From Candidatus Omnitrophota bacterium (GTDB lineage Bacteria; Omnitrophota; Gorgyraeia; Zapsychrales; Zapsychraceae): a stretch of 64,000 bases of DNA. A program made the translations under genes and the position numbers. Positions 570 through 20,634 of this stretch are shown piece by piece. The stretch's first letter is position 1, and each line of letters begins with the position of its first letter. The DNA lies in NCBI GenBank assembly GCA_035292445.1, contig DATDQB010000020.1, positions 155,484-219,483 of the forward strand. Reading direction: 5' to 3'. Below the pieces are notes generated by a model, which saw nothing but the letters and a program-made list of their open reading frames with translations, did no database searches and was not told the DNA's origin.

Positions 570-3500
570 TTATTTTCCCGGCGGGACACATTCATAACAT
601 TTGAGGATAGGACTCTTTCGGGAAGGATGAAAGAGGATCAACCCGACTTCTTCGCAATTCTCTTCCGCTTTGCAGGCTGAACAATCACGGGCATACCCCT
701 CGTCCAAACATTCGGCATCGCCCAACTCGATTGTAACTGGCCTCTTCGGTGCTTCCTGTTTCTTTTCTGCGCATTGATAGCATGTCTCTCCCTGTTTCGT
801 CTTTTGCGCCTCAACGCATTCTTTATTGGCGCTGGCAAGGCAGCTGTTATCGCATTCGCTCTTGCTTAAAGCGCCCAGATCCGCGCAAGCCTCTTGCCGT
901 ACGGCACATGTATAACAGGGCTCCCCTTGTTTGGTTTGTCCCGCGTGAGCGCACTGCGAATCGGGTTTCTGGTTACACGGCGCGCATTCCTGCTCGGACA
1001 AAAGCCCCAGATCGGCACAGGTCTGTGGTATTTCCACACAACTATAACATTGTTGCCCCTGGTTGGTCGCTTGGGCCGTGACGCATTTTTTCGAGGCAAC
1101 GGCCTGGCAGGCGACGCAATCCGCCGCCGTTATCAGCCCTAAATCTTGGCAAATCTGCGGCTTCTCAACGCAATTGAAACATTGTTTGCCTTCGTTCGTC
1201 TTTTGCCCGGGCTGGCATTGCATCTTCGGGTCTTGAGCGCACTGGGCGCATTGTGCTTCATCCAATTGGTTCAGATCCGCGCAGGCTTGCGGTTTATCAA
1301 CGCAGGAATAACACGGCTGGCCTTCTTTGGTAGGCTGGGCCGGCTGGCATTCTTTACGCGGATTTTCATTGCATAAACGGCATTCGGTTTCATTCAAAAG
1401 CCCCAGGTCTTGGCATTGCTGCGGCTTTTCGAGGCAAACATAACATTGGCCGCCCTGTTTGGTTTTATCGCCGAGTTTACATTCCGTTCTCGCGTTTGTC
1501 TCGCACTGGCGGCATTCTTCGTCGCTCAGTTGCCCGATGTCCTGACAGCTTTGCTCTTTCTCGACGAGCTTCTCAACACAAGCATAACATTGCGTTCCTT
1601 CTTTGGTCTGCTTATCCTCGCGGCATTCGGTCTTGGAGTTACGGTTACAGAGTCGGCATTCCCGCTCATCCAACAATTCCAGATCGGCGCAGGTCTGCGG
1701 CTTTTCAATGCAAACAAAACACTGCTTGCCTTCCTTGGTTTTGTCGCCAAATTTACATTCGGCTCTCGCATTCGCTTCGCAATCACGGCACCCTGCCTCA
1801 TCCAATTGAGCAAGGTCCCCGCAGGTTTGCGGCCTATCAACGCAGCTAAAGCATTGCATCCCTTGCTTGGTCTTTTTAGCGCTTTGACATTCTTTCTTCG
1901 CATCCGTTGAACAATTCCCGCAACCGGCTTCATCCAACAATTGCAGATCAGCGCAAGTTTGCGGCCTTTCCACGCAACCGTAACATTGTTTCCCTTCTTT
2001 GGTCTGTTGGGCCGGCTGGCATTCAAAATTTCCTTTTGACGTGCATGATCCACATTGTGTTTCATCAATGAGATCGAGATCTTTGCATTCCTGAGGTTTA
2101 TCTACGCAAACGAAACATGGCAGGCCTTCTTTGGTCTTGTTGCCTTCTTTGCATTCGGTCTTGGAATTGCGGTTGCACAAACGGCATTCGCGTTCATCCA
2201 ATTGCTCCAAGTCAGCGCACGTTTGCGGTCTATCGGCGCAGCTGAAACATTGTTCGCCCTCATTGGTCTTTTGAGCGATCACACATTCTTTTTTCGGATC
2301 AGATTCGCATTGGACGCACGCATCAGCCTCGACCAATCCCAGATCGGCACACACCTGCGGGCGATCCTCGCAGGAGAAACACTGCTGGCCTTCTTTTGTC
2401 CGACGGGAACTGGCGCATTGTTTCTTGGGATCCTGCGTGCAGGAGGCACAATCGCCCTCGCTGATAAGGCCCAGGTCAACGCAGGTTTGCGGCTTTTCAA
2501 CGCAGCTGAAACACTGTTTTCCTTCCTTGGTTGGCTGGGCTGGCTGGCACTCGGCATTCCCTTTGGCCACACATGACTCACATTGCGTTTCATCAATAAG
2601 ATCCAGATCGCGGCATTCCTGAGGCTTATCCACGCAAATAAAACATTGCGCGCCTTCCTTAGTTTTATTACCCTCTTTGCATTCGGTCTTGGAATTGCGG
2701 TTGCATAGCCGGCAGTCACGTTCATCCAATTGCTCCAGATCCACACAGGTCTGCGGCTTATCAATACAACTAAAACAAGCTTCGCCCTCTTCGGTCTTTT
2801 TATCCGGTTTGCATTCCTTGCCGGCCTCGACACACCCGATGCATTGATTGGCATCAATAAGCCCCAAATCGCTGCATGACTGCGGTTTGTCGGCGCAAAC
2901 AAAACATTGCTCCCCTTCATTTGTTATCTTATCGGCTTGGCATATCTTGGCGGGATCGGAAGTACATTCTTGGCATTGCGCTTCATTTAATAAATCCAAA
3001 TCGGCGCATTCCTGCGGGCGCAGTTCACAACTGTAACATTGCATCCCCTCTTTGGTCCTTTGGGAAATAACACAACGTTTTTTTGAATCTCTCTCACATT
3101 TCTTGCATTCATCAATGCTAATAAGTCCGAAATCATCGCAACTTTGCGGTTTTTCGGTACAAACAAAACATTGCCTGCCCTCTTTTGTTTTATTGCCTTC
3201 GTTACATTCCGTGTTGGGTTTTTGAAGGCACCCCTCGCAAGAGGCTTTCTCCAATTGGCCGATATCCGTGCAGGTCTGCGGTTTATCGAGGCAAACAAAA
3301 CACGCTAGCCCTTGTTTGGTTTTCTTATCCGGTTTACATTCCTTATTAGGATCTTCGCCACAAAGCTTGCAGCCAGGCTCATCCAAGAGGTTTAGATCGG
3401 CGCAGGTCTGGAGTTTATCGAGGCATCTGAAGCAGGCTTTGCCTTCTTTGGTCTTTTTGCCGGCGAGGCATTCTTTCGATGGGTCTTTCACGCATTCGGC

Positions 3501-5615
3501 GCACTGATCGGCATCAAGCAAATCAAGATCACGGCACTCCTGCGGTTTGTCAACACAGCTAAAACATGACAGGCCTTCTTTGGTTTTATCGGCTTTCTTA
3601 CATTCTTTCGATTCCTCTGTGCATAAATCACAAAATTCCTCGTCGAAAAACCCGATATCGGCGCAGGTCTGCGGCCGCTCCACGCAGGAATAACACAGCT
3701 CGCCTCCTTCAGTGCTCTTATCGGCCTTGCATTCTTTCTTCTTGTCTGCTTCACAGGAAGAGCAGCCACCCCTGGAAATTAACCCGAGGTCTTCGCATTC
3801 CTGCGGCCTTTGGACGCATTCAAAACATGGCGTGCCTTCCTTTGTTTTCTTCTTGGGCCGGCATTCGCTTCTAGGCTTTTGGGCACACTCCTGGCAGGCA
3901 GCTTCATCCGAAAGCCCCAGGTCAGAACATGTTTCAGGACGGTCCTCACACTCAAAACATGGCTTACCTTCTTTGGTCACTTTATCTTTGACGCATTGCT
4001 TCTTTCGGTTACGCTCGCAAGAAGCGCAATCTTTTTCATCCAACAAATTGAGTTCAGCGCATTCTTGGGATTTCTCAGCGCAAACGTAACACTGTTTGCC
4101 TTCTTTGGTCTTCTGATCCTGACGGCATTCGGTCTTTTTGTTGCGATCGCACGCGGGGCAATCGCCTTTATCGAGCAAGCCTAAATCGACACATTCCTGC
4201 GGCTTATCGACACAGGCAAAGCATTGTTTGTCCTCTTTGGTAGATTCCGCTTGTTTGCACTCTTTGCGCGGGTTTTGTTCGCACGAAACACCGCAATCTT
4301 TCTTATCAAGAAGCCCGATATCGACACATTCCTGCGGCTTATCCACACAAGTAAAACATGGCTTGCCTTCTTTGGTTTTCTGGGCCTCCTTGCACTCGCT
4401 TCTGTTATCTTCTTCGCATTGGGCGCAACCCTTTTGATCAAAAAAGCCGATATCTATGCATTCCTGGGGCCTGTCAACGCAGGCAAAACATGGCTTGCCT
4501 TCTTTGGTTTGCTTGGACGCTTCGCATATCTTCTTGGGATTTTGAGTACAAACAGCGCAATCTTTTTCATCGAGCAACTTCAGGTCAACACACTCCTGCG
4601 GCTTATCGATGCATTTAAAGCACGAGACCCCCTCTTTTATGTTTCTTAAAGGAACACATTGCTTGGAAGGGTCTTTGGCGCAGGATGGGCATTCTTTTTC
4701 GTCGATCAAATCAAGGTCGGCGCATGTTTCGGAGCGCGACACGCACGCGTAACATTGCCTGCCTTCCTTGGTCTGCTGGGCCGGCTGGCATTCCATCTTG
4801 AGATCGCTCGAACACTGCCGGCAATCCTTTCTCTCCAATAAACCAATGTCGGGACACTCTTGCTCTTGCTCCAGGCATTTATAACACTGTTTGCCAGTCT
4901 TTGTTTTCTTGATCTCAACGCACTGTTTATGGCGTGCAATGTTGCAGGCGTCGCATTCTTTCTTATCGATCAAACGCATATCGGCGCATTCGTTGGTGCG
5001 CAAGACGCATTCGAAACATTCCGTGCCGTCTTCCGCTGTTTCTTTCACGACGCATTCCATGAACGGATTGACATTGCAGGCCTTGCATTCGGAGATGGTG
5101 AGCAAACCGAGCTCTTTACAGACGGGTGGTTTCGACTCGCATTGAAAACAGGAATCTCCGTCAATGGTCTTGCGGACAAAAACGCATTCACCGTAAGGGA
5201 TCTTCTGGCACTCGGAGCATTGCCCTTTATCCAGAAGCTTTATTTCGCGGCATTGTTGGCGGCGCTGCAGGCATTCATAGCATTGTTCACCGCTTTTGGT
5301 CTTTAAACTGGGCTGGCAGACGTTTTTGGGGACGTCTTCACATTGACCGCAGTCTTCTCGTTTGATGAGGCCGACTTCTCGGCACGTTTGGGGGGCAGGC
5401 AGCGGGGAAACTTTAGGTTGTCCAAGAGTTTGGCGGGAGGTGGCCAAAGTATCTATTGGGAGTTTCTCCCGCTGCACAAGTGTCGATACGCTATTATTTT
5501 CAAGTTGCTGGAGCGCCTGTGGCCCCGTGGCTGCTCCAGATCTGTCTTCAGCTATTAAAGAGAAAGATATCAGTGAGCAAATAAAAACGACCGCCGCCAA
5601 TTTCGATATCTTCAT
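570..5615 (-). CDS. Giant secreted cysteine-rich tandem-repeat protein (1681 aa). It has an N-terminal signal peptide followed by about 35 copies of a 44-aa repeat with six Cys each. Function unknown.
   Basis: One uninterrupted 5-kb ORF. The N-terminus MKISKLAAVVFICSLISFSLIA is signal-peptide-like. The repeat consensus is roughly PQxCxDLGLLDxxxCxxCxxxxxxxCxxxxKTKEGxxCFxCVDKPQ, repeated throughout. Opposite-strand ORFs in this span are repeat artefacts. Confidence 0.8.
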   Translation of the reverse strand: MKISKLAAVVFICSLISFSLIAEDRSGAATGPQALQQLENNSVSTLVQREKLPIDTLATSRQTLGQPKVSPLPAPQTCREVGLIKREDCGQCEDVPKNVCQPSLKTKSGEQCYECLQRRQQCREIKLLDKGQCSECQKIPYGECVFVRKTIDGDSCFQCESKPPVCKELGLLTISECKACNVNPFMECVVKETAEDGTECFECVLRTNECADMRLIDKKECDACNIARHKQCVEIKKTKTGKQCYKCLEQEQECPDIGLLERKDCRQCSSDLKMECQPAQQTKEGRQCYACVSRSETCADLDLIDEKECPSCAKDPSKQCVPLRNIKEGVSCFKCIDKPQECVDLKLLDEKDCAVCTQNPKKICEASKQTKEGKPCFACVDRPQECIDIGFFDQKGCAQCEEDNRSECKEAQKTKEGKPCFTCVDKPQECVDIGLLDKKDCGVSCEQNPRKECKQAESTKEDKQCFACVDKPQECVDLGLLDKGDCPACDRNKKTECRQDQKTKEGKQCYVCAEKSQECAELNLLDEKDCASCERNRKKQCVKDKVTKEGKPCFECEDRPETCSDLGLSDEAACQECAQKPRSECRPKKKTKEGTPCFECVQRPQECEDLGLISRGGCSSCEADKKKECKADKSTEGGELCYSCVERPQTCADIGFFDEEFCDLCTEESKECKKADKTKEGLSCFSCVDKPQECRDLDLLDADQCAECVKDPSKECLAGKKTKEGKACFRCLDKLQTCADLNLLDEPGCKLCGEDPNKECKPDKKTKQGLACFVCLDKPQTCTDIGQLEKASCEGCLQKPNTECNEGNKTKEGRQCFVCTEKPQSCDDFGLISIDECKKCERDSKKRCVISQRTKEGMQCYSCELRPQECADLDLLNEAQCQECTSDPAKICQADKITNEGEQCFVCADKPQSCSDLGLIDANQCIGCVEAGKECKPDKKTEEGEACFSCIDKPQTCVDLEQLDERDCRLCNRNSKTECKEGNKTKEGAQCFICVDKPQECRDLDLIDETQCESCVAKGNAECQPAQPTKEGKQCFSCVEKPQTCVDLGLISEGDCASCTQDPKKQCASSRRTKEGQQCFSCEDRPQVCADLGLVEADACVQCESDPKKECVIAQKTNEGEQCFSCADRPQTCADLEQLDERECRLCNRNSKTECKEGNKTKEGLPCFVCVDKPQECKDLDLIDETQCGSCTSKGNFECQPAQQTKEGKQCYGCVERPQTCADLQLLDEAGCGNCSTDAKKECQSAKKTKQGMQCFSCVDRPQTCGDLAQLDEAGCRDCEANARAECKFGDKTKEGKQCFVCIEKPQTCADLELLDERECRLCNRNSKTECREDKQTKEGTQCYACVEKLVEKEQSCQDIGQLSDEECRQCETNARTECKLGDKTKQGGQCYVCLEKPQQCQDLGLLNETECRLCNENPRKECQPAQPTKEGQPCYSCVDKPQACADLNQLDEAQCAQCAQDPKMQCQPGQKTNEGKQCFNCVEKPQICQDLGLITAADCVACQAVASKKCVTAQATNQGQQCYSCVEIPQTCADLGLLSEQECAPCNQKPDSQCAHAGQTKQGEPCYTCAVRQEACADLGALSKSECDNSCLASANKECVEAQKTKQGETCYQCAEKKQEAPKRPVTIELGDAECLDEGYARDCSACKAEENCEEVGLILFHPSRKSPILKCYECVPPGK
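755..5375. repeat. Tandem array of about 132-bp (44-codon) direct repeats inside the Cys-rich gene.
   Basis: Periodic recurrence of motifs such as caaacaaaacattg / ttctttggtct / gcattcggtcttgg at about 132-bp spacing on the plus strand. This corresponds to the protein-level repeats. Confidence 0.8.
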
Positions 5616-5668
5616 TGCCCTTCCTTAACTTATTCGTAATCAAGAAAATAAAACTCATTACTCTATAC

Positions 5669-7759
5669 TCACATTCTACTTAAAATATCCTTTGTTTCAA
5701 GTGTTTCAAACGGAATCTCTTTGGGAATGCTCACCGTCAATTTAATTTGGCCAGTGGCCATTAACTCTTCCGACTCGATTTTCATGTAACTCGAAAGCTC
5801 AGCGGCATCTACACCCAACTCAAACGCTAATTCCTTTTGCGCCTCCTCAAGCGTCAGCTTGCGGGCCATGGCATATTTGATCTTATCCGAGGCGCTGACC
5901 ATCTCAAGGGGCTTGGAAATCTTGGTTAAATAAATACGGTTTTCCTGAACTCCCTTTTGCGCCCTGAAATTAAAAACCCCCACCTGATCCAAACCATAAT
6001 TGGCCACATAAATCTTCCCGTTGGCGACCGTTACGCTGGAAAGGCTAGGAAAATAACTGGGTCCCTGGCCGTTGGAGCCGAAATCCATCACCAATTCGCC
6101 GTTGGGATCAATGATCGTCACTTTGTGCCGGCCCCGATCCGCCACGTACAGATAATCATGCTCATCAATGCTTAGATCAACAGGGTCTTCAAATTGTATT
6201 TCCTGGTCCAACAACCCGCCGATCTGGCGGATGAATTCGCCGCCTTTGGTGAAGATCTGGATGCGCCTGTTCCTGCTGTCCAAAACAAATAACCGATCTC
6301 TTGAATCAAAAGCGACCGTTTTAGGGCTTAAGAACGTCCCCGGCGACGGGCCGGCCTCGTTCATTCTTTCTGATTTCTCTCCGAAAGCTTTCAGGTAAAT
6401 ACCGTCTTCGCTGAAGATCTGAATGCGGTTGTTCTTGCTGTCAGCGACATAGATGTTCCCCTGGCTGTCCGCGGCAACCCCGCCCAACGCGTTGAATTCA
6501 CCGGCTTGATCACCGCGCTTACCGAAAAAATAGGTCGGATTCCCTTCCTGGTCCAGAAGCTGAAGCCGATGATTCCCTGTGTCGGCGACCAAAATCCTTC
6601 CTCTGGGATCCACCTCAATGGATCCCGGCCGTTTCAATTGATGTAAATTCTCGTTCAATGGCTGGAACGTTAAATGGGCCGGGTCCTTGATAAGGATTTC
6701 TCCCCGCTTCTCGGCTAAAGCATAAAGCCCTTTTTGCTCGTCATAATTAAGATCAACAACGCTGGGACCGGCATCAATCGAACGATCATAATCAAGAAGG
6801 GGCGGTAAATAGACCGCTGGCTCAAGATTGCCCTTAGGGCTTCCTGTGATCTCCAATACCTGAACGCGCCGATTCCTGGCATCCGCCACATAAACATGAC
6901 CCGTCCGATCCGCCGTGATCCCCGATGGCCAGTTAAACTGTCCTTTACCGTCCCCTTGAGATCCGAAAGAAAACAATAACTTCTTGTTTTGATCGATCTT
7001 TTTGACGCTGTGCGAATCCGTCTCGATCAAATAAATATCCCCTCGCATGTCAACGGAAATACCCGCCGAGCTGGAAATAAGGTCCTTCCCCTCCGCCTTG
7101 AGAGTGATCTGTTCATATTCATATGTCTTCAAATTAAATTTAATGATACGCCCGATGCCCGGCATAAGGACGTAAAGATGCTCGTTAAGATCGAAAACCA
7201 AATCCGTCGGCTTAAAGCTTAACCGTCGGTAATCCAGAAATGCCCCGTTGGGGGAAAACTTGGAAATGGTCTTATTGGTGCTGTCGCCGATATAGATGTT
7301 TCCGATGTTATCAATGGCAATGCTGTCGGGCGATTTAAACTGCCCTTCGTCCTTCCCGTAATGGCCCAGCTGAAAGACAAATTCGCCTTGAGGGCCGAAG
7401 ACCTGCACGCGGCTATTGCCGGTATCCGCTACAACCACGTTTCCCGTTAATGTTAAAGCGACCGCTTTAGGCTGATTGAACTCACCGATATTCGAACCTC
7501 TTTGGCCGAAAGAACTTTTTAATTCCCCCTGTGGATTAAAGACGGATACCTTTGCCTGCTTTCGATCCAGCACATAAATGTCGCCGCTGTCATTGACCGC
7601 GGCATCAATAGGCTCCTGCAGGCCTTCCGTTAATTCCCGTACAAACTTGACCTCTTCAAGCGCCCACGAATCCTGAACATTCAGACCGATAAGACCAATC
7701 GTGAAGGCCAGCAGGAACGAATAGTTTCGGAATATTTTCCTTTGTTTCATAAACCCCAC
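5669..7759 (-). CDS. NHL-repeat beta-propeller protein (about 12 NHL blades) with an N-terminal signal peptide and a C-terminal non-repeat domain.
   Basis: Repeated GxxGxxxGQFxxPxGIAxDxxGxIYVADxxNxRIQxF-type blades (e.g. GQFNWPSGITADRTGHVYVADARNRRVQVL). The N-terminus is hydrophobic. A GGGGTGGGG ribosome-binding site lies 4 nt upstream of the ATG. The gap to the downstream Cys-rich gene is 53 bp, which suggests an operon. Confidence 0.85.
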   Translation of the reverse strand: MGFMKQRKIFRNYSFLLAFTIGLIGLNVQDSWALEEVKFVRELTEGLQEPIDAAVNDSGDIYVLDRKQAKVSVFNPQGELKSSFGQRGSNIGEFNQPKAVALTLTGNVVVADTGNSRVQVFGPQGEFVFQLGHYGKDEGQFKSPDSIAIDNIGNIYIGDSTNKTISKFSPNGAFLDYRRLSFKPTDLVFDLNEHLYVLMPGIGRIIKFNLKTYEYEQITLKAEGKDLISSSAGISVDMRGDIYLIETDSHSVKKIDQNKKLLFSFGSQGDGKGQFNWPSGITADRTGHVYVADARNRRVQVLEITGSPKGNLEPAVYLPPLLDYDRSIDAGPSVVDLNYDEQKGLYALAEKRGEILIKDPAHLTFQPLNENLHQLKRPGSIEVDPRGRILVADTGNHRLQLLDQEGNPTYFFGKRGDQAGEFNALGGVAADSQGNIYVADSKNNRIQIFSEDGIYLKAFGEKSERMNEAGPSPGTFLSPKTVAFDSRDRLFVLDSRNRRIQIFTKGGEFIRQIGGLLDQEIQFEDPVDLSIDEHDYLYVADRGRHKVTIIDPNGELVMDFGSNGQGPSYFPSLSSVTVANGKIYVANYGLDQVGVFNFRAQKGVQENRIYLTKISKPLEMVSASDKIKYAMARKLTLEEAQKELAFELGVDAAELSSYMKIESEELMATGQIKLTVSIPKEIPFETLETKDILSRM

Positions 7760-7784: not shown

Positions 7785-7812
7785 AAAAGGCCTATTCCAA
7801 AAGGAATAGGCC
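7785..7812 (-). terminator. Intrinsic terminator hairpin on the minus strand, 26 bp upstream of the NHL start codon. It is the candidate attenuator / expression platform of leader element A.
   Basis: Perfect inverted repeat aggcctattcc aaaa ggaataggcct, followed on the minus strand by TTTTTTGTTGTG. Confidence 0.6.
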
Positions 7813-8130
7813 TTAGCTAGACAGAATCTATCTGTTAAAAAAGATGCTTTGATTCGGCAGCTGGCTATCCCTTTTCAAGGACCCTTCCCCGACGCTTCGG
7901 TCGGGGCCCCGACTTCCTCATTTAATTTTTTCTGAGGAAACGTCGGGGTAGTTTTGCGACCCCGGATTACTCCGCCCCGCTTCGCCGAATTACTTTCGTA
8001 TTCGGCTACGCAGGACGTTCTGCGAAGCTCAAACGTGAAAACTTTTGAGCGAAGCAGAACGGGTGTGCCTTTTTCGTCAAAAAGACGAATTTTTAAAGAA
8101 CTGTTAGAAATTTATCTATCATCAAACAAA
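7785..8130 (-). ncRNA. Structured RNA-like element copy A (about 340 nt). It is a candidate riboswitch, attenuator or sRNA in the 5' leader of the NHL / Cys-rich operon.
   Basis: The minus-strand order is: a conserved 44-nt imperfect hairpin (GUUCUGCUUCGCUCAAAAGUUUUCACGUUUGAGCUUCGCAGAAC); a second hairpin (GCCGAAU..AUUCGGC); GC-rich stems (CCCCGAC/GUCGGGG twice); the conserved stretch GGAUAGCCAGCUGCCGAAUCAAA; then the terminator. It is paralogous to copy B, with compensatory substitutions between the two. Confidence 0.4.
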
Positions 8131-9541: not shown

Positions 9542-10993
9542 TTAAAGAAGCGGTGCGAACAGCCGCGCCAGTGAATTCCTTAATTTAGCGGCCGTCGTGA
9601 GATTGCTGAAATCTTCGAGGGTAAACTCGCGGCAGTCCTTAAGGTCTTCCATAAACTGCCTTTCGATTGCCAACGCGCAATCCTCCTCATAAATAAGCGT
9701 ATTCGTTTCATAATTGAGATGAAAACTTCGGATATCCAAGTTGGCCGTCCCGATGGAGCAAACCTGGCTGTCGATGGAGATGGTTTTGGCGTGCATAAGC
9801 CCTTTCTTATAGTGAAAGATGCGCACGCCGGCCTGAAGAAGATCCTCAAAATACGTGAACGCCGACCAATAGGGGAGCCAATGGTCAACGACGCCGGTAA
9901 TCATGATCTTCACCTCTATCCCGCTTAACGCCGCGGTCTTTAAGGCCATGAAAATGCTCGGGTCTGGGATAAAATAGGCTGATTGGATAAAAAGATGTTT
10001 CTCTGCCGACTTAATGAGCGCAAAATACAATTGCTTGATCGAAAGCCACTGCGAGTCCGGGCCCGAGGTCGAGATCTGGATCGGTAGATCATCTTTTAAG
10101 TCAAACGCCGGCCTATAATACTTCTCATCAAAAAGTTTCTTCTTGGTCGTGTTGTACCAATCGATCGTAAAAATGGCCTGATAAATGGACGTGGCCTCTC
10201 CCTCAACCCGCAAATGGGTGTCCCGCCAGAACTTAAATTTACCGCCGTTAATATATTCATCGCCGATATTGACGCCGCCATTGTAACCTATCGTGCCGTC
10301 GATGATAACGAGCTTGCGGTGATTGCGATAATTAAGCGTATGGGCCGTGAACAAAGACAAAAAATTAAAATACGGATAAATATCGATACCAGCTCCCCTT
10401 AATTCACGGATATATTTCTTGCTCAAAAACATGCATCCCCAAGAATCATACAAGATCCTGACCTCAACTCCTTTCTTGGCGCGTTCAATCAGTATCGCCT
10501 TGATCTTTTGGCCAAGTTCGTCATGGCGCCAAATATAATATTCCATATGGATGAACGCCTTGGCATTATTCAAATCCTCCAAAAGACAATCGAATTTATC
10601 TTTGCCGTGATGGAAAATTTTCAAACGATTATTGGCCGTCAATATGGAATTTGAGGTGTTGGCCAATAACTGCATCAATTCTCTTTTATAGGAAGTAGCC
10701 CATTTTGATTGAAGGTTCTCAAGCTCTGTTTCTTGCCTCTCAAGAAGCGGCTTTAAAGGATAGGCCAAATTCCCCTCGATAAACTGATGGACCAATTTAT
10801 CCTGGGCGCGGGAGCGTTTCCAGCTCCTTCCAAAAAAAACATAGGCGATAAAACCCAAAACAGGGAACAAAATAAAAAGGACCAGCCAGGCGATGGTGGA
10901 GGAAGGTTCACGGTTATCCAACAAAAGATAAATAGCCGTGATGACAAGGAAAATATAATAAACAATGATTAAAACAGAAAGTATATGATCCAT
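9542..10993 (-). CDS. cls: Cardiolipin synthase (PLD superfamily with two HKD motifs).
   Basis: Two N-terminal TM helices. HKD motifs HRKLVIIDGTIGYNGGVNIGDEY and HAKTISIDSQVCSIGTANLD. Length 483 aa, typical of ClsA. Confidence 0.85.
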   Translation of the reverse strand: MDHILSVLIIVYYIFLVITAIYLLLDNREPSSTIAWLVLFILFPVLGFIAYVFFGRSWKRSRAQDKLVHQFIEGNLAYPLKPLLERQETELENLQSKWATSYKRELMQLLANTSNSILTANNRLKIFHHGKDKFDCLLEDLNNAKAFIHMEYYIWRHDELGQKIKAILIERAKKGVEVRILYDSWGCMFLSKKYIRELRGAGIDIYPYFNFLSLFTAHTLNYRNHRKLVIIDGTIGYNGGVNIGDEYINGGKFKFWRDTHLRVEGEATSIYQAIFTIDWYNTTKKKLFDEKYYRPAFDLKDDLPIQISTSGPDSQWLSIKQLYFALIKSAEKHLFIQSAYFIPDPSIFMALKTAALSGIEVKIMITGVVDHWLPYWSAFTYFEDLLQAGVRIFHYKKGLMHAKTISIDSQVCSIGTANLDIRSFHLNYETNTLIYEEDCALAIERQFMEDLKDCREFTLEDFSNLTTAAKLRNSLARLFAPLL

Positions 10994-11001
10994 AGGGTTT
11001 G

Positions 11002-13068
11002 TTAAAGATGCTCGGCCAAGAATTCAGCCAGCCGCTCTTTCCATCCTTGATCCAGCGGCTCGGTCATTTCTTTCGATTCTTTAAAGTCGGCCTCGAATAA
11101 GCTCTCCAATATGCTCTCGACCGTCTTACTATCGGATGTCGCGAGATTTAATTCCAGGTTATCGACCAAACTCAGTTTATCAAAATTCGCCGAGCCCGTA
11201 CAGAGCCATCCGTCGTAAACGGCGGCTTTGATATGCGACATGCCCGGATAAAAAAAGACCCGGATGCCACTGCGGAACATCGTATTGGCGCTCACCACGT
11301 TATTGGCGTTCATGATATTATGGTTGCCGTGAATGGGAAGGATGACCCGCACATCCACCCCGCGCCGCCGGGCTTTGATCAGCTCATAAATGATCGTATC
11401 GTCCGAAAGATAGGAGTTATGGACATAAATATATCTTTTCGCCTCTTTAATGGCCAAAAGCTGGGCTTTATAAATCTGCGGGTCGTTAAGCCGCGTATAC
11501 AACGTCCGTAACGGCGGGTGCCCTTCATGCCCCCGGTTGACGGCGAGTTTATTAAAAACCGATTGTAAATACCCCAAATCGCCCCACGCGCCGGCATGGG
11601 CCCAGGCGATCTCGAATTCCTTCATGATCTCAGCCAATACGGGGCCCCGCACTTCCATCATCATATCATGCCAATGATAACGGTATTCCCGTCCGATGTT
11701 CATGCCGCCGGTAAAAAATAATTCTTCATCGATGATAATGGTCTTGGTATGGTCCGCCTTGAACCAGGCATTCGGCCTGACACGCACTTGAATATTGGAG
11801 CCTTTCCTTAAATAGCTTTCCATCGAAGAAGGCGGCGTAAACCCTTGGGGCAGATCTTCCGGGACTTTCCCCTCCCCCATCACCTGCCCCATCCCATCCA
11901 GCAAAACCCTGACCTTAACGCCTTCTTTAGATCTTTTCTTCAATAGATCCGCGATGGAAACGGCATAATCATCGTTATCAAAAATAAAAATACGCACGTC
12001 AATAGACTTCTTGGCAGCGATAATGGCATCGGTCAAGCGCGTAAAGAATTCATCGCCGTCGATAAGAAAATCCATGGCCCCATGAGAAGTTCTCGTGCCA
12101 AGGGTTTTATTGAGCTTGTCTTCAAAAGCCTTCAAGTCCATCCCCTCCCCCTTATACAAAGGCGGCGGGGGCGTGTTATCAAAGGCCGCCAAAGACGGTG
12201 GCTTGATGACATCGCGGGTCGTGGATTGGGCCCAGGAAAAAAGCCGTAAACTGGAACTGACCGGACGCTTCCACATCCCCAGCACATAACTGTCGAATAA
12301 CAAATAATCGGCGGATTTGACCCCTTTTTTAAGCAAGCCCTGGCGGTATTTGGCTTCATTACCGACAGGAAGCTTCAAATGGAAAGCGACCCTGTTGGCT
12401 ATATCAATATATAAAAAAGGATTGGTATAATCATCGTCATTCGCGACGGCTAACAAAATTTGCTCGGCCTCGATCGATTGTTTTGCAAGATACCCTTTCA
12501 TCGTCTCAACCATCTTGAAAGCAAGCTCCTGCTGGGTGAGTGTTTGCGCTATCTGAACATGCGCCGGCTTATCTTTGAGAGCCATGACCTGAAGATGCTC
12601 ATCGTCATCATAGAACAGAATTAACTCGTCCTCATTACTACGGATAACCGTTCCTTGGTTGGCTTCCTGGGGCGTCAGCGCGTGCGCCAGATCAAAACGA
12701 AAATCGTGCCAATGCTGCGCCGGAAGGGCCAAAATGCTCTTAAGTTGCTGCGGGCGACCTTGCCAGCGCTGCTCATCAATAATCTTTAAGGGGACAACGA
12801 TATTTTTAGACAGATTTATATCGGGGCTCTCGGTGGGATCCCAGTTGGCGTAAGCGTAAAACGTCTCATATTCGTCGCTGTCATTCCAGTAGCTGTTGAA
12901 ATGGATGTACAGTTCATTCTCTGCAACGGCAGCTTCGAGGACCTCCAGCGCGGCGGTTTGATTAATCCAGATGCGCGCCACATCGTTGAGTCTTGCCTGA
13001 GGGTCTTTGAGAAAAGAACAACCCCCTAACAAGAAAAGAGAAATAAAAAATAGGATCGCTTTTCGCAT
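11002..13068 (-). CDS. Lipoprotein of the phospholipase D family. The N-terminal domain of about 350 aa has unknown function; the C-terminal half carries two HKD motifs.
   Basis: Lipobox LFLLGGC after the start MRKAILFF. HKD motifs HTKTIIIDEELFFTGGMNIGREY and HIKAAVYDGWLCTGSANFDKLS. The start was chosen at the signal-peptide Met; the ORF runs on to 13161. Confidence 0.75.
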   Translation of the reverse strand: MRKAILFFISLFLLGGCSFLKDPQARLNDVARIWINQTAALEVLEAAVAENELYIHFNSYWNDSDEYETFYAYANWDPTESPDINLSKNIVVPLKIIDEQRWQGRPQQLKSILALPAQHWHDFRFDLAHALTPQEANQGTVIRSNEDELILFYDDDEHLQVMALKDKPAHVQIAQTLTQQELAFKMVETMKGYLAKQSIEAEQILLAVANDDDYTNPFLYIDIANRVAFHLKLPVGNEAKYRQGLLKKGVKSADYLLFDSYVLGMWKRPVSSSLRLFSWAQSTTRDVIKPPSLAAFDNTPPPPLYKGEGMDLKAFEDKLNKTLGTRTSHGAMDFLIDGDEFFTRLTDAIIAAKKSIDVRIFIFDNDDYAVSIADLLKKRSKEGVKVRVLLDGMGQVMGEGKVPEDLPQGFTPPSSMESYLRKGSNIQVRVRPNAWFKADHTKTIIIDEELFFTGGMNIGREYRYHWHDMMMEVRGPVLAEIMKEFEIAWAHAGAWGDLGYLQSVFNKLAVNRGHEGHPPLRTLYTRLNDPQIYKAQLLAIKEAKRYIYVHNSYLSDDTIIYELIKARRRGVDVRVILPIHGNHNIMNANNVVSANTMFRSGIRVFFYPGMSHIKAAVYDGWLCTGSANFDKLSLVDNLELNLATSDSKTVESILESLFEADFKESKEMTEPLDQGWKERLAEFLAEHL

Positions 13069-13200
13069 AAGACTTTCCAGAGCCTTGCTCCAAAACGTCC
13101 GAATGATGCCAGCCGGTGTATGAACAAGCCAATTGTAACAAAGATAAATAAAAACAGCCACTCTTTATTCTTAATAAACAGCGGCTGTTTTACTAAATTT

Positions 13201-15054
13201 CTAATTATAACTTAGGTTACGCGCAATAGGGGAAGGAACGGGCTTGATGTTCTGCAGGTTTTGCTCGACGAAATCTTCGAGCCTTGTCTTAAGTTCCTCG
13301 ATTTCCTCGATGGCTTGCAAACGGTATTCTTCCGTCTGCTCCACCATCTTGGGGAAAAGTTCTTTGTAATACTCGATGCCTTCCAGCATGTTGTTTTGAA
13401 ATTCTCTGAAGTACTGCAGTTTCTTCTCGGTGGGCGCATGGACGATCTTATCGAACTCTTTGATGAAATAATCGATGTAGATCTTAAGCTCTTTGACGAA
13501 CATATTCGACCGGTAAGTGCTGTTTAACAAATTCAGCCTGCCGTAGATGTGATCGACCATTTCCCTTAAGGTTGCGATTTTGGAAAAATAGGCGATATTC
13601 GGCCCCGGGCAGATGGCCGGAAAATGCTTGGCGGCATCCTTGACCGCGTTATTCTTGATCAAAACGCCTTCGCCTAAATCATTACAGAGGCAGGCCTTCT
13701 TGACGACTTCCTGATATTTGACATTATACGACTCATGGTCCAAATTTTGCTTACTAAGTTGTTCCAGCTTTAATTTCTGGTATTGGCGGCTGGCGGTACA
13801 GATCGGTTCTTTCGTAAATTCCGTATTGGACACCAAATACCCCTTAGGGCACGCGCTTCCCGGCTGGCCTATTTGAGAGCGCCGTTCTTTGGCGCGATCC
13901 GACGGGTTATCTCTTAGATTACTAAACGGAATGCCTAACGGTGAGACGTCGCTCATATAAATGTCTTTTTCGCCGGCTCGGGAAAGTTTCATCAACGTCT
14001 CTTGATCGACGTTCGTAACCTCAGGCACCAGCAGGAACGGCGAAGCCCACCCCGTGCCATCCAGCCCATAATATTGAAGTAAAAACTGATCTTCCAAATA
14101 CGTCCCGATGCCGCCCTGGGCGGTTATCTTCACTTCAAGCGGCTGCGAAGGACACGGCCTGTTTTGCTCTCGCAAGACCTTTTGATAAATGGCAAAAAGC
14201 TCCTCTACCAATTCAGCCCTTTTTTGTTTAAATTCTTCCAAGATCGGCCCCATCAAATACCCGTCTGTTGCGAACAAATGGCCGCCGCAATTAAGCCCCG
14301 ACTCGATACGGTACTCGGAAACCCAAATCCCTTTTTTGGCGAGGAATTTCCCTTGAATAATGGTCGAGCGGTAATCGCTGACCTTAAGGACGACTTTTTT
14401 CTTAAGGAATCCCTGTTCATCGGGAAAGAAATCATTGAATTTTTCAATATACGCATAAAGCGACCGGTTGAATCCGGCGGAAAAAACGATGGAAGATACC
14501 AAATCGCTTTGGGCATAACCGCGTAAGGCGGAGAGTGCATCCGAATATTCGGACGAAAGAGGTGTTTTATCTTTAGCAGAAAAATTGGCCCGATCGAGCT
14601 TTGTCATGATGTTGACGTTGATATCGCCAGCCACCAGTTCTTTCTTCAACTGTTCCTGGAGGCGTTTCTTCTCAACGGTACCGATAGTGGCCTTCATCTG
14701 TTCATACAAGCCATTGAGCGGTGAACTTTCCGGTAAGAGTTCGAAATATTTGGTAATCTCGCTTCCGGCTTCAAAGGCGCTTTTCTTAAGCGCCTCGAAC
14801 TTCTGCTCAACGATACGTTTGACGAGGTTCAAATAAGCCGTAATCCGTTTGGCGCGATGGTCCTCTTCATATTTGGTGATGGGCTCGTACTTTTCTTTGC
14901 TTATCTTGCAGTAATACTCGCGCATCTTCTCGATCAAGACATCGTCAACCAGAGAAATGACAGAGGAAATCCCGTATGGCGCGACCTTGACAGGCGTGTC
15001 AATCGAGAATCCCGTTCCCATGACAGGGATATGGAAGGTGTGTACTTTAGACAT
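13201..15054 (-). CDS. Hypothetical 617-aa protein with no motif I can assign. It is the first gene of the operon with the PLD lipoprotein and cls.
   Basis: Long uninterrupted ORF. It is separated from the PLD gene by 40 bp on the same strand. Glycine-rich stretches (GGHLFATDGY, ITAQGGIGTY) suggest a nucleotide- or cofactor-binding fold, but I cannot assign a family. Confidence 0.6.
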   Translation of the reverse strand: MSKVHTFHIPVMGTGFSIDTPVKVAPYGISSVISLVDDVLIEKMREYYCKISKEKYEPITKYEEDHRAKRITAYLNLVKRIVEQKFEALKKSAFEAGSEITKYFELLPESSPLNGLYEQMKATIGTVEKKRLQEQLKKELVAGDINVNIMTKLDRANFSAKDKTPLSSEYSDALSALRGYAQSDLVSSIVFSAGFNRSLYAYIEKFNDFFPDEQGFLKKKVVLKVSDYRSTIIQGKFLAKKGIWVSEYRIESGLNCGGHLFATDGYLMGPILEEFKQKRAELVEELFAIYQKVLREQNRPCPSQPLEVKITAQGGIGTYLEDQFLLQYYGLDGTGWASPFLLVPEVTNVDQETLMKLSRAGEKDIYMSDVSPLGIPFSNLRDNPSDRAKERRSQIGQPGSACPKGYLVSNTEFTKEPICTASRQYQKLKLEQLSKQNLDHESYNVKYQEVVKKACLCNDLGEGVLIKNNAVKDAAKHFPAICPGPNIAYFSKIATLREMVDHIYGRLNLLNSTYRSNMFVKELKIYIDYFIKEFDKIVHAPTEKKLQYFREFQNNMLEGIEYYKELFPKMVEQTEEYRLQAIEEIEELKTRLEDFVEQNLQNIKPVPSPIARNLSYN

Positions 15055-18400: not shown

Positions 18401-19555
18401 GTGACATATCTGTCCTACCAACAGTCCCAGGTAGGTCCCTATGATACCACCCAAGATGGCCAACAGCAATCCGACCGAAGCCAGCCCCGGCTGGTACACC
18501 TCCGCCACGATCGGAGCGGAGGCCACCCCGCCGATATTGGCCTGGCTGGCGACCGCGACCAAGAACAAAGGAGCGCGGATCAGCCGGGCCACGCCGATGA
18601 GGACCGCCAGATGAATAAAGACGATCAGAAATCCGGCAACGATCAAGATAAGCGCTGAGCCGATATGGGCTAAACTCGCCTTGGCGCCGATGGAGGTTAA
18701 CACGAAATACAAAAGAAAGTAGCCGATGCGCGTAGAGCCGTATTCTTCCAATCTTCTGGCCGGCGTGAATGAAAACAAAAGCCCTAGCACGGATACAAGG
18801 ATGATCGTCCACGCGTACATTGAAATGACATCTTTGACCTCCGGCAACAGGCGGGCGGCGCTGGTTGCCGCAAAGCCACCCAGGAAAGCAAATATCAAGA
18901 TAAAAATCGTGACAAAGAAATGATTTTTTTCTTTTCGCACGCTCATCATCCCCTTGATCCTTCGAGTAAGATCTTCCAGCACCTGGCGGTCACAGCGGTT
19001 CCAGCGGTCATAAATGGGTTGAAGCCCAACCAACGCGACCAGCGTTCCCATCCAAATATAGGGAACGATGGTGTCCACGATCACCATCGGCAGGAAAACT
19101 TGATCCGGGGTGCCCAAAGCTTCTTTGACGGCGATCATATTCGCGCTTCCCCCTGTCCACGAGCCCGAAAGCGCGCCAAAGCCGGACCACATCTGTGTTC
19201 CCACCACATCCTTAAAAAGAACAAAAACAACGACCGTCCCCAGCATGATCCCGAAACTCCCTGCCAACATCATCGCCAGCGCCGAGGGGCCTAATTTAAA
19301 GATCGCCTTAACATCAACGCAAAGTAAAAGTAAGAACAAACTCGCCGGCAGGAAATTCTTGGAAATAACGCCGTAAACACTTGCTTGGCTGTCAATAAAT
19401 CCCATCGTTGAGGTGACCATCGGCAAAAAATAGATCCAGAAAACCGCCGGCAGGAACTTAAAGAATCTTTTATAATGTGGATGACCGGACAAATAAAGGA
19501 TCATGATCTCGATCAACAAAAGAACGCCCACGATGCCTAAAGGATGTTTGATCAT
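18386..19555 (-). CDS. DUF819-like polytopic membrane protein.
   Basis: 389-aa protein with about 10 TM helices. Last gene of the peptide-recycling operon. Its 3' end has a displaced paralogous copy 0.8 kb downstream. Confidence 0.6.
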   Translation of the reverse strand: MIKHPLGIVGVLLLIEIMILYLSGHPHYKRFFKFLPAVFWIYFLPMVTSTMGFIDSQASVYGVISKNFLPASLFLLLLCVDVKAIFKLGPSALAMMLAGSFGIMLGTVVVFVLFKDVVGTQMWSGFGALSGSWTGGSANMIAVKEALGTPDQVFLPMVIVDTIVPYIWMGTLVALVGLQPIYDRWNRCDRQVLEDLTRRIKGMMSVRKEKNHFFVTIFILIFAFLGGFAATSAARLLPEVKDVISMYAWTIILVSVLGLLFSFTPARRLEEYGSTRIGYFLLYFVLTSIGAKASLAHIGSALILIVAGFLIVFIHLAVLIGVARLIRAPLFLVAVASQANIGGVASAPIVAEVYQPGLASVGLLLAILGGIIGTYLGLLVGQICHLIAG

Positions 19556-20634
19556 AGGCCCTGAAGGATGATCCCCACTCCCGCCTTCACTTTTCTTAAA
19601 TCATATTGGCCATCGGAACTTAAATAAGAATTACCTTTTAATCCGCCCTTGATAAAAAATGGCGTATCCAGGTCGATGTAATCAAAACACCCCAAACCGG
19701 CAGCCAGGTGCGCGGAGGCAGTCATGGCCAAAGACGTTTCCATCATCCCGCCGATCATGAGCTTTATGCCGCTCGCCCGGGCGAGCCGGGCGATCTTGCA
19801 AGCGTGCACGATGCCGCATTTCATGATTTTAATGTTAATGACGGGAACTAACTTTTGTTTTATGATTTTTCTGGCGTCGTCCATCGTACGCACGCTTTCA
19901 TCCGCGCAAACGGGAATGGTTGTCGAACGGGAAATCCTTTTAAGCCCCTCCCAATCGTCTTTGGGCACCGGCTGCTCAAGTAGATCGATCTTGATCTTTC
20001 CCTTTTCCAATAATTTCAAAAATTTCAACATCTCATCAGCCGTATATCCCTGGTTGGCATCCAGATAAATACGGCTTCTAGGGGCCGATCGTTTAACGAT
20101 CTCAAGGCGTTTGAAATCAAGGTCCATGTCCCTGCCGATCTTGACCTTAAAGGCCCGGAATCCCTGACGAAAATATTTCTTAACCGAACTTTCCGTTTCC
20201 TTAAGGCCTGCCAGCACGATCGTTATATCACTGGTGAGCTTATGGCAGCGCCGGCCGAAAAACCGCCATAAAGGCATCCTCTCCTGACGGGTCAAGGCAT
20301 CGAGCAAGGCCGTTTCAATAGCGGCAATGGCACAGGGATTGGAAGAAAGGATTTGATGAAAACGCTGCGATATTTCTTCCACCCTTGCCGGCGATTCGCC
20401 CAATAATTGTTTTTTGATACGCTCTAAATTGTCGAGGGTCTGCCGCAGTGTTTCGCCGGTGATGTGTGTGGCAACAGCGGCCTCGCCCCAGCCTTTGGTC
20501 TTATCTTCCAATTCGATGCCGAATAAAATATTTTCGAGATAATCATGGGTACCCAACGCCGTGCGGAAAGGCTGGTTAAGTTCGGCCTTGAGAATTTGGA
20601 CAGAAATGTTCTTGATCCGATGGCGCGCGCTCAA
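19552..20634 (-). CDS. Dipeptide epimerase of the enolase superfamily (L-Ala-D/L-Glu epimerase, YkfB-like).
   Basis: MR/MLE-type N-terminal capping domain and barrel (KVKIGRD..., DANQGYT..., metal-binding D/E residues). It overlaps its neighbours by 4 bp. Confidence 0.75.
   Translation of the reverse strand: MSARHRIKNISVQILKAELNQPFRTALGTHDYLENILFGIELEDKTKGWGEAAVATHITGETLRQTLDNLERIKKQLLGESPARVEEISQRFHQILSSNPCAIAAIETALLDALTRQERMPLWRFFGRRCHKLTSDITIVLAGLKETESSVKKYFRQGFRAFKVKIGRDMDLDFKRLEIVKRSAPRSRIYLDANQGYTADEMLKFLKLLEKGKIKIDLLEQPVPKDDWEGLKRISRSTTIPVCADESVRTMDDARKIIKQKLVPVINIKIMKCGIVHACKIARLARASGIKLMIGGMMETSLAMTASAHLAAGLGCFDYIDLDTPFFIKGGLKGNSYLSSDGQYDLRKVKAGVGIILQGL

Follow-up and report, generated by a model that had tools for sequence, protein, structure and literature searches.

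The question raised by this locus is what kind of product, and for what use, is encoded by a gene of an Omnitrophota bacterium that holds little besides one short cysteine-rich module repeated many times over. The preliminary description of the DNA had reported a single intact gene in which an export signal is followed almost wholly by 44-residue units with six cysteines each, and this was borne out in the window (the whole analysed stretch of 64,000 nucleotides, to which all positions refer): the ORF opens with an ATG, contains no internal stop codon, and holds 35 such tandem units, for which the earlier estimate had been about 35. The strand has to be corrected, however, as the gene lies on the minus strand. 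The mature product has ~1659 residues, a mass of ~184 kDa and a pI of ~4.9, its acidic composition being rich in Lys and Glu. Cys makes up 217 of the 1681 residues of the precursor (12.9%); apart from a single one within the signal peptide, all of these (216, or 36 x 6) lie in the rest of the chain. The coordinates of the gene and its surroundings are collected in Table 1; sites resembling sigma-70 promoters are no more numerous around the gene than in shuffled sequences.

With a tandem array of this length, the gene model would be wrong if the repeats had been collapsed, expanded or joined into a chimera during assembly, and short-read contigs do stop inside the array, at window positions 3495 (L004), 3064 (L011), 2676 (L013), 4978 (L012) and 5271 (L014). 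The preliminary description had itself called for a check of an interrupted ORF or a collapsed array, and the gene came through it, as the frame is continuous and its entire length is tiled by contigs of five other public assemblies, all of them 100% identical to it (L010 covers the whole gene, L013 window positions 2676-8000 and L004 positions 1-3495), so that six of six assemblies agree. One independent contig of 208 kb in ENA carries the identical 1681-aa gene call at 100% nucleotide identity. The most similar repeats within the array are just 78–81% identical in nucleotides, which is far from ambiguous for reads; the frame is intact with all six Cys kept in every unit, and orthologues have the same architecture. 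Because the identical assemblies tile the gene and no two units exceed 81% nucleotide identity, we regard an assembly artefact as exceedingly improbable.

Table 1. Positions of the cysteine-repeat gene, the parts of its product and neighboring features within the window.
Feature	Position	Strand	Remarks
Cys-repeat protein gene, complete ORF	570..5615	minus	1681 aa; stop at 570-572
Signal peptide, residues 1-22	5550..5615	minus	MKISKLAAVVFICSLISFSLIA/ED; looks like Sec/SPase I type; sequence inspection
Cys-free low-complexity N-terminal linker, residues 23-74	5394..5549	minus	
Array of 35 tandem units, residues 75-1618	762..5393	minus	
Youngest part of the array	1944..2800	minus	duplication by 4-unit (528-nt) steps; from unit identities and self-match
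Cys-free short linker joining unit 35 to the cap	720..761	minus	KQEAPKRPVTIELG
C-terminal cap module, residues 1633-1681	573..719	minus	C-x8-C-x2-C-x5-C-x18-C-x2-C
Shine-Dalgarno-like sequence	5618..5626	minus	AAGGAAGGG; just 5' of the Cys-repeat ATG
Sigma-70-like promoter match	5673..5700	minus	TTGAAA-16-TAGAAT, 10/12; within the 3' end of the NHL gene; consensus match only
NHL gene	5669..7759	minus	directly upstream; exported; two six-bladed NHL propellers and a conserved ~90-aa C-terminal domain

The N-terminus of the protein (MKISK, then LAAVVFICSLISFSLIA, then EDR) looks like a signal peptide of the Sec/SPase I type. No canonical lipobox ([LVI][ASTVI][GAS]C) is present in the window protein, where VFIC at residues 10-13 has Ile at position -1 and is followed by more hydrophobic residues. 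A Tat signal was considered for the family and rejected, as an RR pair occurs in L003 only and neither in the window protein nor in L002. The window protein likewise has no recognized anchor or outer-membrane secretion signal, with no LPXTG, T1SS, autotransporter or T9SS signal found. At the opposite end, the array gives way to a distinct cap module, which had escaped the preliminary description, as had the Omnitrophota origin of the DNA and the upstream NHL gene and subtilase-fused architecture discussed below. The cap includes a hydrophobic ‘EEVGLILF’ segment and forms the extreme C-terminus of all members of the type to which the window protein belongs (type A), in the alignment of which six Cys and one Tyr are invariant. 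The notion that the cap is a mere diverged unit is unsupported, since a profile comparison with hhalign gave a probability of 9.5%.

The units themselves follow a strictly periodic cysteine spacing, C-x10-C-x2-C-x7-C-x11-C-x2-C-x6, with a period of 44 residues over all 35 copies and the consensus PQxCxDLGLLDExxCxxCxxxxxKECxxxxKTKEGxQCFxCxxK. The gap between C4 and C5 is thus 11 residues and not 9 as given earlier, and the KTKEG core that had been ascribed to each unit is found in exact form in 9 units only, with the looser T-x-[EQSD]-G occurring in 30. The six Cys are invariant in the window protein, T32 and G35 are kept in >90% of units, and the [DE][KR]PQ linker is present in 21. The strictest form of the cysteine pattern fits 31 units, compared with at most one across 2000 shuffles of the protein, and a hidden Markov model of the unit gives 35 matches in this reading frame and zero elsewhere in the window. 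Departures from the period are confined to one-residue length variants in units 9, 14, 20 and 35 and an insert of 4 aa after unit 29.

The units are well diverged at the DNA level, as had been reported, with mean pairwise identities of 54% in nucleotides and 44% in amino acids and a maximum of 81% in nucleotides. The closest pairs lie four units apart in the part of the array listed in Table 1 as its youngest (u21/u25, 81% nucleotide and 89% amino acid identity; u22/u26, 77% nucleotide identity; u29 of the same subtype), and the array matches itself there over 329 nt at 78% identity with an offset of 528 nt. Synonymous differences between units are saturated (pS ~0.80) against a pN of 0.37, and dN/dS for the closest unit pairs is ~0.02-0.07. 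The suggestion of an old array under selection can therefore be made more specific, in that these values support an old array under purifying selection. One-to-one orthology of units across genomes was not found, the best cross-genome identities (45-66%) being about the same as those within a genome.

Consistent with the earlier suspicion that no described Cys-rich repeat family fits, the whole protein has 0 matches in Pfam and NCBIfam at E<=10, the Myxococcus repeat models included, a fragment of three units has 0 Pfam families at E<=1, and the searches of both databases with the whole protein, the three-unit fragment, the cap region and the relatives returned nothing but Peptidase_S8 in those relatives that carry a protease (type B). 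Similar in general layout is the Myxococcus cysteine-rich repeat (TIGR02232 / Pfam DUF4215, PF13948), which is likewise bacterial, exported, arranged in tandem and ~40 aa long, but which differs in its Cys spacing and in its CGDG signature, absent from the unit consensus as the preliminary description had stated. A word-indexed protein search with the full protein gave one relative and no self-match, and gave nothing with the C-terminal region or the unit alignment. A literature search on the repeat or on its pairing with NHL proteins returned nothing relevant, and cysteine repeats go unmentioned in those Omnitrophota papers that were checked. The giant ORFs described from this phylum (PMC10066038, bioRxiv 10.1101/2023.11.21.568195) exceed 20 kb, whereas the window protein at 1681 aa is far smaller.

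Profile searches of 1.84 billion representative proteins showed that the unit is carried by ~36 proteins, recognizable by C-x10-C-x2(3)-C-x7-C-x11-C-x2-C, by DLGLL after C1 and by T-x-x-G at the hairpin tip, all of which the window protein has. The candidates P0025, P0033, P0040 and P0041 (RanBP2-type Zn-finger arrays), as well as P0039, P0043 and P0044, match profile positions 3-20 only and were discarded. Type A comprises exported proteins and lipoproteins with 1-47 units and the cap, and every taxonomically labelled one is from Omnitrophota. Repeat number varies among homologues, a point that the preliminary description had left to be checked: against the 35 units here, the unit model counts 47 and about 37-38 in two Omnitrophota orthologues and 1-19 in ~33 other proteins, with as few as 1-3 in short members such as P0013, P0015 and P0036, lipoproteins among them. 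The cap is present in the window protein, L002p, L003p, P0002, P0005, P0009, P0013, P0015, P0017, P0034 and P0036. The homologues all begin with export signals, and seven have canonical lipoboxes (L002p, P0013, P0019, P0028, P0030, P0031 and P0036), for example FLGC in L002, VVGC in P0013, LAGC in P0028 and P0031, and IVGC in P0036.

In type B, N-terminal unit arrays are placed on large secreted subtilases (P0001, P0003, P0008, P0014 and others). These are bona fide copies of the unit, scoring up to 47 bits each, and the Peptidase_S8 domain is matched at E<=1e-48 in P0001, P0003 and P0008; the window protein, in contrast, has no protease domain or any other Pfam match, and the subtilases have no cap. 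A second, related module type also occurs in the subtilases and is found in L003 and P0006 as well.

Directly upstream of the cysteine-repeat gene lies the NHL gene (Table 1), for which the public gene call gives 693 aa with a start at 7750, and the product of which is identical to NCBI HLF18713.1 from Candidatus Omnitrophota bacterium. It matches Pfam NHL at E=1.7e-57, and its PDB relatives are the NHL domains of TRIM71, Thin and TRIM2. An orthologous double-NHL gene stands directly upstream in five of the seven type-A loci for which context is available, with orthologues of 45-50% identity adjoining family members in L002, L015, L016-18 and L019 and with the two genes overlapping by 4 nt in L015. 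At L003 and L020 the NHL gene is absent from this position and a MORN-repeat protein is encoded there instead. No NHL neighbor was seen at L001, the one subtilase-type locus with an inspected gene table.

Structure prediction of consecutive repeats, as had been proposed, gave a confident AlphaFold2 (AF2) fold (pLDDT 93.4 for three units and 93.0 for a single one), with secondary structure alike in both (helices at 4-7 and 12-20, strands at 24-31 and 37-43), so that a single unit is predicted to fold autonomously. All six Cys are kept in 214 of 218 complete family units, and the other four lose exactly C2 and C4, which, as the unit concerned is orthologous in the four subtilase-type proteins that have it, counts as one evolutionary event. 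From these natural variants we infer a C2-C4 pairing, while the C1-C6 and C3-C5 pairings are suggested by the register of the predicted hairpin. Together with the predicted placement of the Cys, the export signal and the even count of 216, the co-loss of C2 and C4 is indirect evidence for the three intradomain disulfides that each unit probably holds. No Dsb/VKOR-type gene came up in a scan of the 64-kb window that covered most ORFs of at least 200 aa, which is uninformative for a piece of this size. The lineage has the anaerobic markers NrdD/NrdG, and this has to be counted against a disulfide-built stalk.

The cysteines could alternatively bind metal, with C2, C3, C5 and C6, i.e. the two CxxC motifs, chelating one Zn or Fe in the manner of a zinc ribbon or of site 1 of a RING. 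C1-C4 would then be a disulfide or else a further, partial site, and the protein would act as a redox chain, a metal sink or a multi-site coat stabilized by metal. The abundance of CxxC in a protein of such Cys content and the anaerobic markers would suit this, and the unit profile has a single sequence match in the PDB, the MDM2 RING (E=0.0025, i.e. ~0.003; 21 bits), with an identical C-x2-C-x7-C-x11-C-x2-C spacing, in which C2, C3, C5 and C6 align at C-x2-C-x19-C-x2-C with what we take to be the ligands of Zn site 1. Nearly all of that score is contributed by five Cys-Cys pairs, however, and the match is limited to one protein family. As a homologue the MDM2 RING was rejected because nothing but the Cys accounts for the score, the secondary structure is predicted to be different and a structural match is absent; nor does the unit have the eight Cys/His ligands, the RING fold and the Pfam zf-RING/zf-C3HC4 match that mark a RING finger. 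In the AF2 model, C5 and C6 stand at i and i+3 within a regular β-strand and therefore face opposite sides, and C2 and C3 lie in the middle of a helix, which is not knuckle geometry. Because of this placement and because the C2-C3 spacing is x3 instead of x2 in several units, disulfide staples fit better than a single metal site. In addition, C2 is lost with C4 and not with C3, C5 or C6, and there are zero matches to Pfam zinc-finger or VSP models. A metal-binding array thus appears improbable.

A parallel to the window protein is offered by the variant-specific surface proteins (VSPs) of Giardia (PF03302; kin in Entamoeba, Tetrahymena and Paramecium), which are also extracytoplasmic, contain ~12% Cys with repeated CXXC, have a length set by motif number and a proposed protease-resistant architecture, and for which redox and metal roles have been proposed, metals and/or disulfides being needed for protease resistance (PMC6341118). 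The window protein differs in that it has no PF03302 match, C-terminal TM helix or cytoplasmic tail and ends in a Cys cap, and in that it is a bacterial, NHL-paired protein built from 44-aa domains that recur with strict periodicity and are each confidently predicted to fold autonomously. A bolder version, in our estimate a long shot, has every unit binding a metal, or carrying a redox-active pair of thiols, by means of its CxxC motifs, two per unit. If true, this would give an extracytoplasmic chain of ~36 sites over ~100 nm in a bacterium that is ultra-small and probably anaerobic, serving as a convergent, VSP-like Zn-cross-linked coat or as a cytochrome-free thiolate/metal relay, with the NHL protein as an assembly or docking factor.

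The reading that we favor, and to which we give about an even chance, is that the protein is an exported, long and acidic bead-on-a-string stalk, a disulfide-stapled spacer of variable length with a conserved cap, working with the NHL protein in an envelope or adhesion apparatus. Each unit would consist of a short helix, a second helix bearing C2 and C3, and a β-hairpin with C4 on its first strand and C5 and C6 on its second, would be locked by the three putative disulfides, and would be joined to the next by short Pro-containing ‘VDKPQ’ linkers into a spacer of variable length, estimated at ~100 nm if extended. The cap is proposed as the functional end, working with and possibly docking the NHL protein, because the two are the constant parts of the family, and since they are usually encoded side by side, the two proteins probably form a stalk or adhesion apparatus of the envelope. 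Such a two-protein apparatus may serve contact with cells or surfaces, or else act as an envelope scaffold. Rod-like tandem-repeat adhesins with Ig-like domains and intradomain cross-links (PMC10619420) similarly combine an export signal with many small stabilized domains in variable copy number, but the repeat here is neither Ig-like nor any other Pfam domain and is only 44 aa long with three putative disulfides. We infer the extended shape, the surface location, the contact between cap and NHL protein and the adhesion from this architecture, and the disulfide-knotted adhesin or matrix protein put forward in the preliminary description is best taken as a working hypothesis. The organism has LptF/LptG and is therefore diderm, and in a diderm a Sec signal leads to the periplasm only, which counts against a surface location.

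The same predicted architecture would also serve for a structural or protective matrix, in which a protease-resistant, highly charged layer in the periplasm or on the surface has its thickness tuned by repeat number and has no specific partner on other cells. The acidic, Lys- and Glu-rich composition and the want of a recognized surface anchor or outer-membrane secretion signal agree with this, as does the shielding of protists from proteases by CXXC-rich coats (PMC6341118), and because the unit is fused to secreted subtilases in relatives, the module must resist proteolysis. Nonetheless, the conservation of a unique cap and of a propeller partner points to a specific interaction and not to bulk material, and lipid-anchored members with 1-3 units (P0013, P0036) cannot make a thick layer, so that a matrix is a serious but unlikely alternative to the stalk. 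The fusion to subtilases could also be read differently, as a hint at a polyprotein precursor that is cleaved at the VDKPQ linkers into ~35 defensin-like, disulfide-rich peptides of 44 aa acting as toxins or antimicrobials. The autonomous predicted fold and the conserved linker would fit such a precursor, and a helix and β-hairpin with six Cys, of which the helix and the last strand have two each, recalls the cysteine-stabilized alpha/beta (CSαβ) peptides of the defensin and scorpion-toxin kind, a resemblance that we treat as a lead. The CxxxC helix paired with a CxC last strand and the structural similarity to defensins that define the CSαβ fold are not found in the unit, however. With only six residues between C6 and the next C1, with surface residues that are highly diverged among units, and with 1-3-unit lipoproteins whose long acidic linkers and conserved terminal cap fit a tethered architecture, processing into peptides is very improbable.

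The favored stalk does not introduce a new principle, as stalks of tandem cross-linked domains are well known. What is added is a compact new domain whose fold is predicted with confidence and for which Pfam, NCBIfam and PDB yield no detectable relative. Along with it come a defined family architecture, in which 1-47 units stand between an export signal or lipid anchor and the conserved cap, and a conserved double-NHL partner gene. A new Pfam-type family built on the unit would allow portions of large secreted subtilases to be annotated, and the 44-aa module, as a hyper-stable scaffold, may be of interest for protein engineering. Omnitrophota are widespread, uncultured bacteria believed to live as dependents or predators of other cells, and hardly any of the molecules that mediate their contacts are known. 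The cells are ultra-small, and their large proteins, most of which have no recognizable domains, have been proposed to act in cell–cell adhesion (PMC10066038). Within this setting, the cysteine-repeat protein and its NHL partner would provide a testable two-protein candidate for the envelope or adhesion apparatus of Omnitrophota.

The Cys-repeat gene is a single uninterrupted ORF for a protein of 1681 residues, in which 217 cysteines (12.9%) are found, one within the N-terminal hydrophobic signal, which is SPase-I-like, and the remaining 216 (36 x 6) after it. Residues 75-1618 form 35 units of 44 residues with Cys-Cys spacings of 10, 2, 7, 11, 2, and 6, and only five deviations in length, each of 1-4 residues, occur along the array; it is followed by a distinct six-Cys module, the cap, with spacings of 8, 2, 5, 18, and 2. 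The strictest Cys pattern is matched by 31 units, a count that never exceeded one in 2000 shuffles. The unit consensus, PQxCxDLGLLDExxCxxCxxxxxKECxxxxKTKEGxQCFxCxxK, contains six invariant cysteines (C1-C6), and the residues T32 and G35 at the tip of its predicted hairpin are kept in more than 90% of the units. ORF translation and Cys spacing uphold the repeat as given in the preliminary description apart from three particulars: it is the minus strand that carries the gene, C4 and C5 are separated by 11 rather than 9 residues, and the KTKEG core ascribed to each unit is literally present in 9, with T-x-[EQSD]-G present in 30. The many smaller ORFs overlapping the gene are shadows of its periodic, stop-poor coding sequence, which is why antisense ones give BLAST matches between loci.

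A collapse of repeats during assembly, named in the same description as a threat to the gene model, can be practically dismissed. The mean identity between units is 54% at the nucleotide and 44% at the amino acid level, and the closest pair, belonging to a duplication in 4-unit (528-nt) steps (u21/u25/u29 and u22/u26, numbered along the array), reaches 81% in nucleotides, a divergence far too great for read-level ambiguity; moreover, overlapping contigs of public assemblies from other samples tile the whole gene at 100% identity. Five independent assemblies terminate in the array, none of which disagrees with the window and all of which are 100% identical in their overlaps. These short-read contigs end at window positions 2676 (L013), 3064 (L011), 3495 (L004), 4978 (L012), and 5271 (L014) despite unit identities of at most 81%; variation in copy number between strains or tangles in the assembler graph may be the cause. 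Between units, synonymous substitutions have reached saturation (mean pS 0.80 vs pN 0.37) and the youngest pairs show a dN/dS of ~0.02-0.07; the array is old and under selection, as had been proposed, and the selection is purifying.

Pfam and NCBIfam returned zero matches at E<=10 for the whole protein, and none for a 3-unit fragment, the cap region, or the Cys-rich parts of relatives, in agreement with the earlier remark that the spacing fits none of the bacterial Cys-rich repeat families known to its author. With the unit profile, HMMER was run exhaustively against 1.84 billion representative proteins and yielded 43 proteins at E<=0.001, and the family is real but very rare; seven of the 43 are false positives with a partial motif only. 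Many family matches are pieces of 100-370 aa, and fragmentation of the arrays is part of the reason why protein databases under-represent the family; no exact copy of the 1681-aa sequence exists in a ~15-billion-protein collection, and a word-indexed search gave no self-match. The sole PDB sequence match of the unit, the MDM2 RING (E 0.036 with a single sequence, 0.0025 with a profile), arises from five cysteines in identical spacing. Checked for cysteine and disulfide, two Omnitrophota papers on giant genes and the Nature Microbiology survey do not describe the repeat, and wider literature searches gave nothing relevant on it or on its pairing with an NHL protein.

Two architectures occur in the family. 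In type A proteins, an export signal and a linker precede 1-47 units and a common C-terminal cap; repeat number thus does vary among homologues, a point that the preliminary description had proposed to check. The cap (alignment A3) has six cysteines and one Tyr that are invariant, together with a hydrophobic segment, xEVGLILF; profile comparison did not support its being simply a diverged unit. A canonical lipobox is present in the export signals of the L002 family protein and of P0013, P0019, P0028, P0030, P0031, and P0036 from the profile search. Type B proteins are secreted subtilases of 1300-2400 aa, the N-terminal halves of which are mosaics of the 44-aa unit and related Cys modules. In one Omnitrophota subclade, as in subtilase-type proteins, the unit alternates with a second six-Cys module, about C-x3-FPG-x7-C-x3-C-x6-C-x16-C-x2-C (e.g. 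'ECAKRFPGTMPKDLCEIECQGEGRQC...CYEC'); the subtilase-type proteins contain several further Cys-module types, e.g. CPxGxxxGxCPGxCSSxQEC...C[HY]xC.

Directly upstream of the window gene lies that of the NHL protein, which is exported and comprises two NHL propellers and, at its C-terminus, a conserved domain; in four further independent type A loci an orthologue (45-50% identity) is placed and oriented alike. In L003 and L020, loci of the subclade also using the second module, a MORN-repeat protein shared by the two, which may be an alternative partner, is encoded upstream instead; besides the NHL and MORN genes, no neighbour is conserved. The strong terminator-like hairpin preceding the NHL gene suggests that this gene is transcribed together with the Cys-repeat gene and separately from what lies upstream.

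The NHL protein has the same sequence as NCBI HLF18713.1 from 'Candidatus Omnitrophota bacterium', the two full-length orthologues of the Cys-repeat protein that turned up in GTDB species representatives both belong to Omnitrophota MAGs, and the short member P0036 is from 'Omnitrophica WOR_2' MAGs. The organism is diderm, since LptF/LptG are encoded in the window. Anaerobic NrdD/NrdG lie just past its left edge, and the pyruvate dehydrogenase complex, which shares its genome region with NrdD, its activase, and NnrS, is a hint of a facultative or microaerophilic way of life. A further cluster resembles peptidoglycan peptide recycling or remodelling, and the Maf-like/Peptidase_M48 ORF is an unusual fusion, if not an ORF-calling artefact.

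Features of the window, the unit, and related loci (window positions unless a locus, protein, or unit is named)
Feature	Location	Strand	Remark
Cys-repeat gene	570..5615	minus	ATG start
Shine-Dalgarno-like element AAGGAAGGG	5' of the Cys-repeat gene ATG	minus	
Overlapping ORFs	749..5306	both	80-213 aa; other frames/opposite strand
Contig L010 (ENA)			208 kb; identical 1681-aa gene call
Contig L013 (Logan)	2676-8000		100% identity
Contig L011 (ENA)	3064-8000		100% identity
Contig L004 (JGI)	1-3495		100% identity
Predicted helix	unit residues 4-7		begins at C1
Predicted helix	unit residues 12-20		holds C2 and C3
Predicted β-hairpin	unit residues 24-31/37-43		C4 on strand 1, TKEG turn, C5/C6 on strand 2
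NHL orthologue	L002		upstream of family protein with ~47 units
NHL orthologue	L015		upstream of P0013 (364 aa), 4-nt overlap
NHL orthologue	L016-18		upstream of P0036 (299 aa), on >24 contigs
NHL orthologue	L019		upstream of P0015
Small exported MORN_2-repeat protein	L003 9434..9826; L020 187..615		43% identity between loci
Second-module sites	L003 9848..10900; P0002, P0006; N-termini of P0001, P0008, P0023 and others		
Terminator-like hairpin	7787..7814	minus	12-bp stem and T-run; just upstream of NHL gene start
Two tandem PLD-type (cardiolipin-synthase-like) genes, then 617-aa protein	9542..15054	minus	617-aa protein without Pfam match; block kept on other contigs of the organism
Mandelate-racemase-family epimerase, SH3b + NlpC/P60 peptidase, YkuD L,D-transpeptidase	19552..22669	minus	
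PMT_2-family (ArnT/PMT-like) glycosyltransferase	24776..26203	minus	~20 kb from the Cys-repeat gene
PMT_2-family glycosyltransferase	L003 16256..17692	minus	close to the family gene
tmRNA gene	34511..34901	minus	tag peptide GEDSILAQANEIVNPIFAGETVAA
tRNA-Leu(CAG)	36231..36314	plus	
Pyruvate dehydrogenase complex (E1, E2, E3)	36429..42366	plus	complete
Maf-like nucleotide pyrophosphatase + Peptidase_M48	44294..45658	minus	one 454-aa ORF; residues 3-187 and 248-427
Anaerobic ribonucleotide reductase NrdD with activase, and NnrS	L010 10980..14615		same genome region

AlphaFold2, with an input alignment of paralogous window units only, predicts the same secondary structure for three consecutive units (pLDDT 93.4) and for a single one (93.0). 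All six cysteines are present in 214 of 218 complete family units; the four exceptions, which are a single orthologous unit from four diverged proteins of the subtilase type, lack exactly C2 and C4, a joint loss that is expected if a bond links these two and unexpected if a metal site is made up of C2, C3, C5, and C6. In the model, C5 and C6, at positions i and i+3 of a regular strand, point to opposite faces and C2/C3 lie mid-helix, and the C2-C3 gap is 3 instead of 2 residues in some units. Together with the export of the window protein and its even Cys count, these observations favour disulfides, and a metal-binding array is an unlikely alternative; from the hairpin register we infer the pairs C1-C6, C2-C4, and C3-C5. 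The unit constitutes a family not described before, and its fold, predicted with confidence, has no detected analogue. The PMT_2 genes and the near-invariant hairpin-tip Thr raise the idea that the units may be O-glycosylated.

Across the family the unit number varies, and the cap and the NHL partner are constant, which is why the array is read as a covalently stapled, protease-resistant spacer and the cap as the functional end of what would be an extended stalk. The cap would act with the double NHL propeller, perhaps by docking, the two proteins thereby constituting, in the Omnitrophota envelope, a stalk-and-head apparatus that would plausibly serve to contact other cells or surfaces. Built on the observed anatomy, conservation, and synteny, this is the most economical reading, and we give it about even odds overall. 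That the protein instead forms a non-specific protective or structural matrix is a possible, though clearly less probable, explanation, and a polyprotein of defensin-like peptides is highly improbable. A stalk-and-head apparatus of this kind would follow a familiar principle, that of an exported stalk of tandem cross-linked mini-domains, with the domain itself being what is new.
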